Shown here in pieces: positions 9,067-9,160 of a stretch of 9,240 nt of DNA. The stretch lies in the IMG/VR virus record IMGVR_UViG_2541047969_000007. One strand, given 5' to 3'. The notes beneath the pieces were generated by a model, which worked only from the letters and a program-made list of their open reading frames with translations, was not told the DNA's origin and searched no databases. Source of the stretch: a virus (Monodnaviria; Loebvirae; Hofneiviricota; Faserviricetes; Tubulavirales; Inoviridae). The position numbers were made by a program, and so were the translations under genes. Each line of letters starts with the position of its first letter. Position 1 is the stretch's first letter.

Positions 9067-9160
9067 GGTTCGCACAATGACGTTATGCTAAAGAGGCCGC
9101 TGCGGGATACGATTTTCGCAGCGGCCTTTTCAACATAACGAGTCGTACATTATGCGCACC
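9067..9160. other. Candidate attP: two inverted dif-like XerC/XerD sites flanking a GC-rich hairpin (forked-hairpin architecture)
   Basis: Site A (forward, 9067..9093) is GGTTCGCACAA-TGACG-TTATGCTAAAG. Site B (reverse, 9128..9160) has reverse complement GGTGCGCATAA-TGTACGACTCG-TTATGTTGAAA. Compared with E. coli dif GGTGCGCATAA-TGTATA-TTATGTTAAAT, the XerC arm of site B matches 11/11 and the other arms 9/11. Arms of A and B are mutually complementary (9/11 and 8/11) with unpaired central regions. Confidence 0.6.
9091..9130 (+). terminator. GC-rich hairpin with short T-tract; terminator of the accessory operon and/or tip of the attP hairpin
   Basis: Perfect 11-bp stem AGGCCGCTGCG/CGCAGCGGCCT (9094..9104 and 9117..9127), extendable by AAG/TTT, with a 12-nt loop, followed by TTTT (9127..9130). 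Confidence 0.55.

Follow-up and report, generated by a model that had tools for sequence, protein, structure and literature searches.

How does a filamentous phage that encodes no integrase come to lie in tandem copies at the terminus of a bacterial chromosome, and what part is played by the paired, dif-like sequence at the end of its prophage? The stretch of DNA analysed here (the window, 9,240 nucleotides) is 100% identical to sequence in Escherichia coli FDAARGOS_1303, where it makes up one of three filamentous prophage units in tandem. Prophages of this family, the CUS-1/Ypf family, have been associated with the fitness or virulence of extraintestinal E. coli and third-pandemic Yersinia pestis. 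[quoted passage not shown] Such a site would explain how a prophage family that brings no integrase enters the chromosome terminus and persists there.

A megablast search of the whole window against the phage collection gave no match, and the family was recognised through E. coli genomes and Y. pestis contigs. [quoted passage not shown] The window is therefore a member of the CUS-1/Ypf group, being nearly identical to Ypf and differing in the accessory segment alone. At least 80% of the window is present in 86 of 5426 complete E. coli genomes. The unit and its main genes are as follows.

16-9160, minus strand: prophage unit of the CUS-1/Ypf family, 9145 bp, in three tandem copies with a 9145-bp period (window positions 1-95 equal 9146-9240)
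6088-7140, minus strand: rolling-circle replication initiator of the G2P family (Phage_CRI, 1.2e-73; G2P_X_C, 3.6e-34), which sets the gene-sense strand
7312-7758, plus strand: divergent helix-turn-helix regulator (HTH_3, 1.6e-9)
7839-9062, plus strand: variable accessory segment with ORFs at 7858-8280, 8309-8584 and 8584-9063; no blastn match to L002

The minus strand carries the phage genes, namely those for the G2P-family initiator, a G5P-like single-strand DNA-binding protein, a coat protein, a DUF2523 protein, a Zot-like assembly ATPase and a secretin. On the plus strand lie the divergent regulator and the three accessory ORFs, the last of which ends with a stop codon that abuts the hairpin described below; PADLOC, PHROGs and Pfam gave no informative function for these accessory ORFs. 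The accessory segment is not found in Ypf, and the region has already been reported as variable between Ypf and CUS-1; the unit measures 9145 bp in the window versus 8.7 kb in Ypf. Pfam scans of 15 window ORFs found no integrase or recombinase.

The packaged strand is presumably the gene-sense strand, that is, the minus strand of the window. This assignment was made from the direction of the genes, from the layout of CTXphi and from where the crossover lies, because a search for the Ff gene II nick motif was ambiguous with respect to the packaged strand: a single match with three mismatches fell inside the rep gene on the plus strand. A TCAATAGT-like motif occurs on both strands of the rep/HTH intergenic region because it lies inside an inverted repeat.

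Anatomy and predicted fold of the paired dif-like sites

The initial annotation had placed two inverted dif-like sites around a GC-rich stem at this position, and both are present, separated by 34 nt (9094-9127) that contain a perfect 11-bp stem, extended on the plus strand to 14 pairs including one G:T. The parts of the site are listed in window order.

9064-9066, no strand assigned: ATT, paired with AAT at 9161-9163; in the folds, 3 bp added to the hairpin past the XerC arms
9067-9077, plus strand: site 1 XerC-like arm, GGTTCGCACAA, 9/11 against dif (mismatch scan)
9078-9082, plus strand: site 1 central region, TGACG, 5 nt; short side of the internal loop
9083-9093, plus strand: site 1 XerD-like arm, TTATGCTAAAG, 9/11 against dif
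9094-9127, no strand assigned: inner stem-loop, with an 11-bp perfect stem (9094-9104/9117-9127) and a 12-nt loop (9105-9116); closes the hairpin
9128-9138, minus strand: site 2 XerD-like arm, TTATGTTGAAA, 9/11 against dif
9139-9149, minus strand: site 2 central region, TGTACGACTCG, 11 nt; long side of the internal loop
9150-9160, minus strand: site 2 XerC arm, GGTGCGCATAA, 11/11, identical to the E. coli dif XerC arm

The reference E. coli dif reads GGTGCGCATAA-TGTATA-TTATGTTAAAT, and the whole 28-bp site is GGTGCGCATAATGTATATTATGTTAAAT. Both the sequence itself and the mismatch scan bear out the earlier statement that the distal XerC arm is identical to that of E. coli dif and that the other three arms match it at 9 of 11 positions. 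The host site is thus comparable to these arms, its XerC arm and first four central bases being identical to site 2. The site 2 central region TGTACGACTCG shares those four bases (TGTA, on the XerC side) with the TGTATA of dif, and central-region homology is confined to the bases beside the XerC arm. Taken as duplex DNA, the central regions measure 11 bp (site 2) and 5 bp (site 1), neither of which is the canonical 6-8 bp. Two dif-like sites were observed versus a mean of 0.003 in Markov-simulated 9.1-kb sequences matched in composition. An Rfam search gave no match.

When either strand was folded as single-stranded DNA, the XerC arm paired with the XerC arm and the XerD arm with the XerD arm, leaving an internal loop of 11 over 5 nt, as the initial annotation had proposed for the two central regions. 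The fold has a free energy of -29.1 kcal/mol (z = -6.2) on the plus strand and -31.2 kcal/mol (z = -7.3) on the minus, gene-sense strand. The arms contribute to this stability on their own: with the GC stem swapped for a short loop, the outer arms still gave z = -4.9, and none of 200 shuffles folded equally well. On the minus strand, pairing of the XerC arms comprises nine Watson-Crick pairs, one T:G and one G.A mismatch; between the XerD arms there are eight Watson-Crick pairs, a terminal mismatch and two wobbles (G:T/T:G). Once this strand has folded, the complement of the site 1 XerC-like arm forms the bottom strand of the predicted XerC-binding duplex.

The two strands are not equivalent. 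At three positions without a Watson-Crick pair, the gene-sense strand has G:T/T:G wobbles where its complement has A.C mismatches, and the gene-sense hairpin was the more stable in all nine sequences tested, CTXphi among them.

Relatives were collected by replication-protein scans, which returned 7 genome loci and 39 IMG/VR loci, and the module of approximately 95 nt was present wherever the relevant end of the element had been captured. The same fold occurs in divergent attPs from Klebsiella spallanzanii, Brenneria alni, Photorhabdus, the loci L004, L029 and L030, E. coli E24377A and IMG/VR contigs, with central loops of 11/5, 10/5, 11/6 or 9/6 nt. Across eight distinct arm sets, aligned by hand, 91.5% of cells pair and 7 of 22 pairs have changed on both sides, a sample that amounts to about five independent lineages because many related attPs are nearly identical. 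None of 500 shuffles reached the observed values, and slid controls were 31-44% paired. Compensatory changes include T:A to A:T at position 7 of the XerD arm (Brenneria) and T:A to C:G at position 1 (Klebsiella). Some double changes shift both copies away from the dif consensus together, which argues for pairing beyond the presence of two independent dif-like sites. Against this, a pair of inverted dif-like sites would show some complementarity whether or not pairing had been selected for.

Prophage junctions at dif

The prophage array adjoins hipBA, its three copies lying between the SDR-oxidoreductase/fim side and hipA. A perfect 28-bp dif, GGTGCGCATAATGTATATTATGTTAAAT, with no mismatches, marks the left end of the array (L001 19988-20015, minus strand), and the window begins within it.

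1-15, minus strand: phage-proximal part of the regenerated dif, GGTGCGCATAA (15-5) followed by TGTA (4-1); the window starts at L001 20001

At the right end of the array, chromosomal sequence begins immediately after site 2; at the two junctions between copies, site 2 runs into phage sequence. An empty-site construct, in which the two chromosomal flanks were joined over a single dif, found contiguous 100% matches in many E. coli genomes. The insertion was therefore precise, with the crossover inside the shared 15 bp GGTGCGCATAATGTA, and the boundary of the unit can be placed to within this 15-bp identity only. In the gene-sense direction the chromosome is followed by the XerC arm, the 11-nt central region of the phage, the XerD-like arm and the stem-loop, after which come site 1 (inverted), the phage genome, and then the XerC arm, TGTATA and the XerD arm that lead back into the chromosome. 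This order is exactly the product expected from a top-strand exchange between dif and site 2 at the XerC cleavage position. It had been suggested from the paired sites that the phage integrates at dif through the host XerCD system, and the position of the array exactly at dif, the contiguous empty site in other genomes and the lack of an encoded integrase agree with that suggestion.

Relatives narrow the position of the crossover. At seven loci (L002, L003, L013, L015, L016, L018 and L031), the hairpin-side chromosomal junction combines a variant XerC arm with a phage-type central region. The variant arm is GGTGCACATAA in Y. pestis and AGTGCGCATAA, AGTACGCATAA, GATGCGCATAA or GGTGCGCCTAA in the others. 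At inter-copy junctions and in circular forms or circularly permuted contigs, GGTGCGCATAA is kept, and the regenerated dif of L003 and L031 carries the phage-type arm. With variant arms on the hairpin side and the phage-type arm elsewhere, the crossover falls between the XerC arm and the central region. The variant junction arms are probably host-derived; for AGTGCGCATAA this is supported by a dif with the same arm found independently in 13 IMG/VR contigs. We sought the native dif of prophage-free Yersinia as a source of GGTGCACATAA and found none in the literature or in IMG/VR. Relatives that share only TGT with the dif central region, such as L029, are likewise integrated. In the window, XerC would cut, and the crossover would fall, at the 3' edge of the XerC arm of site 2 (minus strand), between positions 9150 and 9149.

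Candidate routes of integration

The route that we favour starts from the single-stranded (+) DNA of the phage, corresponding to the minus strand of the window, which would fold into one long imperfect hairpin. Its XerC-type arms would pair with each other and so would its XerD-type arms, with the 11-over-5-nt internal loop between them and the 11-bp GC stem closing the structure, and the folded hairpin would thereby rebuild a dif-like duplex that XerC and XerD could bind. XerC would then cut after GGTGCGCATAA on both the phage strand and dif, one pair of strands would be exchanged, and the TGTA common to the phage site and dif would stabilise the exchange. Host replication would turn the resulting pseudo-Holliday junction into a prophage with site 2 at the chromosomal XerC-arm flank and a complete, regenerated dif opposite, the latter able to take further copies. 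Integration may be effectively irreversible, because with central regions of 11 bp and 5 bp as duplex neither site is expected to be a Xer substrate. New virions would arise from rolling-circle replication across tandem copies, a mode of production with which the three tandem copies observed here are consistent.

By analogy with CTXphi we infer the single-stranded substrate, catalysis by XerC only, resolution by replication and irreversibility. A search of the literature found no direct test of the single-stranded mechanism for CUS-1 or Ypf. Several points weigh against the favoured route. The packaged strand was deduced from the direction of the genes and by analogy rather than from a mapped origin, and a crossover on duplex site 2 would yield identical junctions. 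In addition, superinfecting Ypf often inserts between resident copies, and Ypf is mostly extrachromosomal in E. coli and Y. pseudotuberculosis (PMC4266046); a simple form of the model predicts neither behaviour.

Because duplex site 2 would leave the same junctions, a VGJphi-like route has to be weighed, in which site 2 alone, on the double-stranded replicative form, serves as the attP, XerC exchanges one pair of strands, and site 1 and the hairpin are uninvolved. VGJphi resembles the window phage in being filamentous, in integrating at dif through an exchange mediated by XerC and in having homology to the central region of dif on the XerC side alone. Site 2 does have a perfect XerC arm and TGTA homology, and the junctions are what a XerC-side crossover at site 2 would leave on either a single- or a double-stranded substrate. 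As a duplex, however, site 2 has a central region of 11 bp, whereas known Xer sites have 6-8 bp, and when site 2 is re-registered at a spacing of 6-7 bp its XerD arm, as read off the sequence, matches at approximately 3 of 11 positions. The 12-bp site of CTXphi is unsuitable for Xer because of the length of its central region (PMC4246890). Use of site 2 alone would also leave unexplained the conservation of site 1 in every lineage, the compensatory changes and the strand-specific wobbles, and we consider it unlikely. VGJphi itself differs from the window in having a single duplex dif-like site of approximately 29 bp, a near-canonical central region and reversible integration. As a type, a VGJ attP was rejected for the window, which has, in place of one duplex site with a central region of canonical length, an inverted pair whose central regions measure 11 and 5 bp.

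The hairpin could instead be a terminator between convergent units or an Ff-like packaging signal, that is, a hairpin downstream of gene IV, with incidental dif-like arms. The Ff packaging signal is an imperfect hairpin that ends the gene-sense operon. Here the inner GC stem lies just past the stop codon of the ORF at 8584-9063, is followed by TTTT on the plus strand and sits where two directions of transcription converge. The inner stem is strong, but a scan for consensus terminators and promoters called nothing there, since its loop is 12 nt long and only four T follow the stem. Moreover, chance would supply 0.003 dif-like sites per unit, and the prophage joins the chromosome precisely at the XerC arm of site 2, at the host dif. 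This explanation is very improbable, and as the sole function of the hairpin, termination or packaging is excluded by the junctions; the inner stem might have a secondary role in either.

Least probable of all is a TLCphi-like route, in which XerD makes the first exchange on a duplex whose XerD arm is degenerate, aided by a phage-encoded activation factor. It would suit the want of a proper XerD arm seen on inspection of duplex site 2 at canonical spacing, but this type was rejected on XerD-like arms that match dif at 9/11, a central region that matches it at 4/6 and is not near-identical, no DUF3653 domain or XafT-like protein in the Pfam scans of 15 window ORFs, and a phage central region beside the host XerC arm at the junctions, which indicates a XerC-side crossover.

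Known systems and wider distribution

The folded single-stranded attP favoured here has its closest precedent in CTXphi, whose attP lies between ctxB and rstR. In the gene-sense direction it reads AGTGCGTATTA, 12 nt, TTATGTTGAGG, then approximately 90 nt, then the inverse of AATGCGTATTA-7 nt-TTATGTTACGG, and it folds arm to arm with a branched spacer. The window attP shares this layout, in which a XerC arm, a long central region and a XerD arm are followed, after the spacer, by inverted counterparts in the order XerD arm, short central region, XerC arm, including the asymmetry of long over short central regions, as well as mismatches or wobbles in the arms and dif homology on only the XerC side of the central region. 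In both phages the attP lies between the end of the gene-sense operon and a divergent repressor, no integrase is encoded, and tandem prophages occur at dif (PMC4246890).

The two sites differ in their central regions (11/5 nt in the window versus 12/7 in CTXphi) and in their spacers, which are 34 nt with one stem-loop in the window and approximately 90 nt and forked in CTXphi. Of the CTXphi-style forked hairpin described in the initial annotation, the CTXphi layout therefore stands but the fork does not, the window hairpin being single and unbranched in the folds; branched spacers were found in the relatives L030 and L004 and in CTXphi. Past the dif-like arms there is no sequence homology between the two phages, and the replication protein is of the G2P family in the window and RstA in CTXphi. 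The single-stranded mechanism has been demonstrated experimentally for CTXphi, whereas for CUS-1 and Ypf it is predicted from sequence and folds.

The attachment site has already been described, and both the type of site and the phage family are known: PMC4246890 and PMC3442271 class Ypf and CUS-1 as CTX-type elements, and PMC4266046 notes the inverted pair of sites in Ypf. In the encapsidated genome of Ypf, two potential XerC/XerD binding sites are inverted with respect to each other, dif is restored intact at the 3' end, and arrays hold two to four copies (PMC4266046); dif integration, tandem arrays and the regenerated dif are features that Ypf and CUS-1 have in common with the window. Both phages are listed as relatives of the CTX type, with a single-stranded attP(+), XerC-first exchange and irreversible integration (PMC4246890 Table 2), and as enterobacterial IMEXs (integrative mobile elements exploiting Xer) related to CTXphi (PMC3442271). 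The anatomy of the window attP, its in silico fold, its integration at dif and its junctions support its placement among CTX-type IMEXs.

To the published descriptions, the present analysis adds covariation and strand-asymmetry support for the fold in several enterobacterial lineages, and junction evidence for a crossover where the XerC arm meets the central region. It also adds a hairpin module common to inoviruses with different replication proteins, and fossils of this module in many E. coli chromosomes and plasmids. In E. coli E24377A, an inovirus with an unrelated, Rep_trans-type replication protein lies at dif and carries the hairpin attP at 85% identity. The hairpin attP of approximately 95 nt may thus be a portable integration cassette and not a feature of one phage lineage, an idea that we hold tentatively. 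If it is correct, folded single-stranded Xer substrates would be a general route by which cargo, including candidate defence genes, is placed at dif and possibly at plasmid Xer sites.

Truncated copies of the hairpin were also observed. A form without the site 2 XerC arm and central region, and with an IS200C-like end, is present in approximately 800 E. coli records. In strain 631, the truncated hairpin flanks a SIR2-family gene in a small island at the chromosomal dif, and in at least one large plasmid it lies beside an STM4504-family gene, near a dif-like site.

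The hairpin attP in other phages and in a circular record

The chromosome of E. coli E24377A (L053 9001-16700) carries a different inovirus that is inserted at dif and adjoins hipB. For its replication protein the annotation gives a replication initiation factor (RstA-like) instead of G2P, and the phage's hairpin attP (GGTGCGCATAA-TGTGTTACACG-TTATGTTGAAA ... inverse of AGTGCGCACAA-TGACG-...) shows 85% identity. Because a phage with an RstA-like, non-G2P replication protein has so similar an attP, the attP cassette is common to phages with unrelated replication modules. A hairpin attP was also seen at 80% identity in positions 1640-1745 of pJNE25-005_3, a circular 9613-bp record from E. 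coli JNE25-005 (L052) that is annotated as a plasmid; besides the attP, it has an HTH gene and an IS3-family insertion, and its replication-protein annotations are fragmented. This record may represent a related filamentous phage, possibly a defective one, in its replicative form.

Truncated hairpin copies in E. coli

A truncated form of the hairpin module, with its counterpart at window 9063-9137, is found in approximately 800 E. coli records at about 93% identity, and 485 of the places where it occurs are plasmid-borne. Site 1, the stem-loop and the XerD arm of site 2 are retained, and an IS200C-like end takes the place of the XerC arm and central region of site 2. Two such loci are as follows:

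L050 3933-6745, E. coli 631 chromosome: truncated hairpin island
L049 2950-5784, plasmid pMEI008_1: truncated hairpin locus

In E. coli 631, the truncated hairpin bounds a 2.8-kb island at dif, in which hipA, the hairpin, a SIR2-family gene, an ISNCY remnant and a perfect dif follow in that order. In pMEI008_1, the one plasmid examined, the truncated hairpin adjoins an STM4504/CBY_0614-family gene and lies close to a dif-like site, TGTGCGCACAA-TCTATC-TTATGTTAAAT. Such loci could be decayed prophages, or they could be independent Xer-exploiting islands with candidate defence genes.

Junction arms and possibly stacked elements at dif

In the Y. pestis NCTC5923 prophage locus (L002), the XerC arm reads GGTGCACATAA at the chromosomal hairpin-side junction (993-1025) and GGTGCGCATAA at the inter-copy junction (9735-9767). 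The dif of CO92 is listed as GGTGCGCATAA... (PMC2731167). Should GGTGCACATAA at the junction be the native arm, then the XerC arm in the recorded dif of prophage-bearing Y. pestis is phage-derived.

In contig L006 (4811-8258), the phage attP is preceded, 3.4 kb upstream, by a further dif-like site, AGTGCGCATAA-TGTGTTGA-ACATGTTAAAT, and a perfect E. coli-type dif is present at 16569. The additional site suggests that a second, unrelated element is stacked at the same dif. The genome_contigs records L004 and L006 bear the labels of an Aerococcus MAG and a Candidatus Nanosynbacter MAG, respectively. Both carry this enterobacterial inovirus, whose replication proteins in them are 96% and 86% identical; its presence there most likely reflects binning contamination.

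The rep-HTH intergenic region and variation among tandem copies

Between the rep and HTH genes lie two inverted repeats, one enclosing the other:

window 7168-7282: rep-HTH gene intergenic region
window 7210-7236 with 7240-7266: imperfect inverted repeat of 27 nt
window 7168-7184 with 7266-7282: second, outer inverted repeat

The outer repeat contains TCAATAGT-like motifs similar to the Ff nick site, and window 7168-7282 is probably an operator and replication-origin region.

Among the three tandem copies in E. coli FDAARGOS_1303 (L001), the first and third are identical, and the second is 1 bp shorter (9144 bp), with its DUF2523 gene annotated as frameshifted (L001 32305-32591; counterpart, window 3160-3447).
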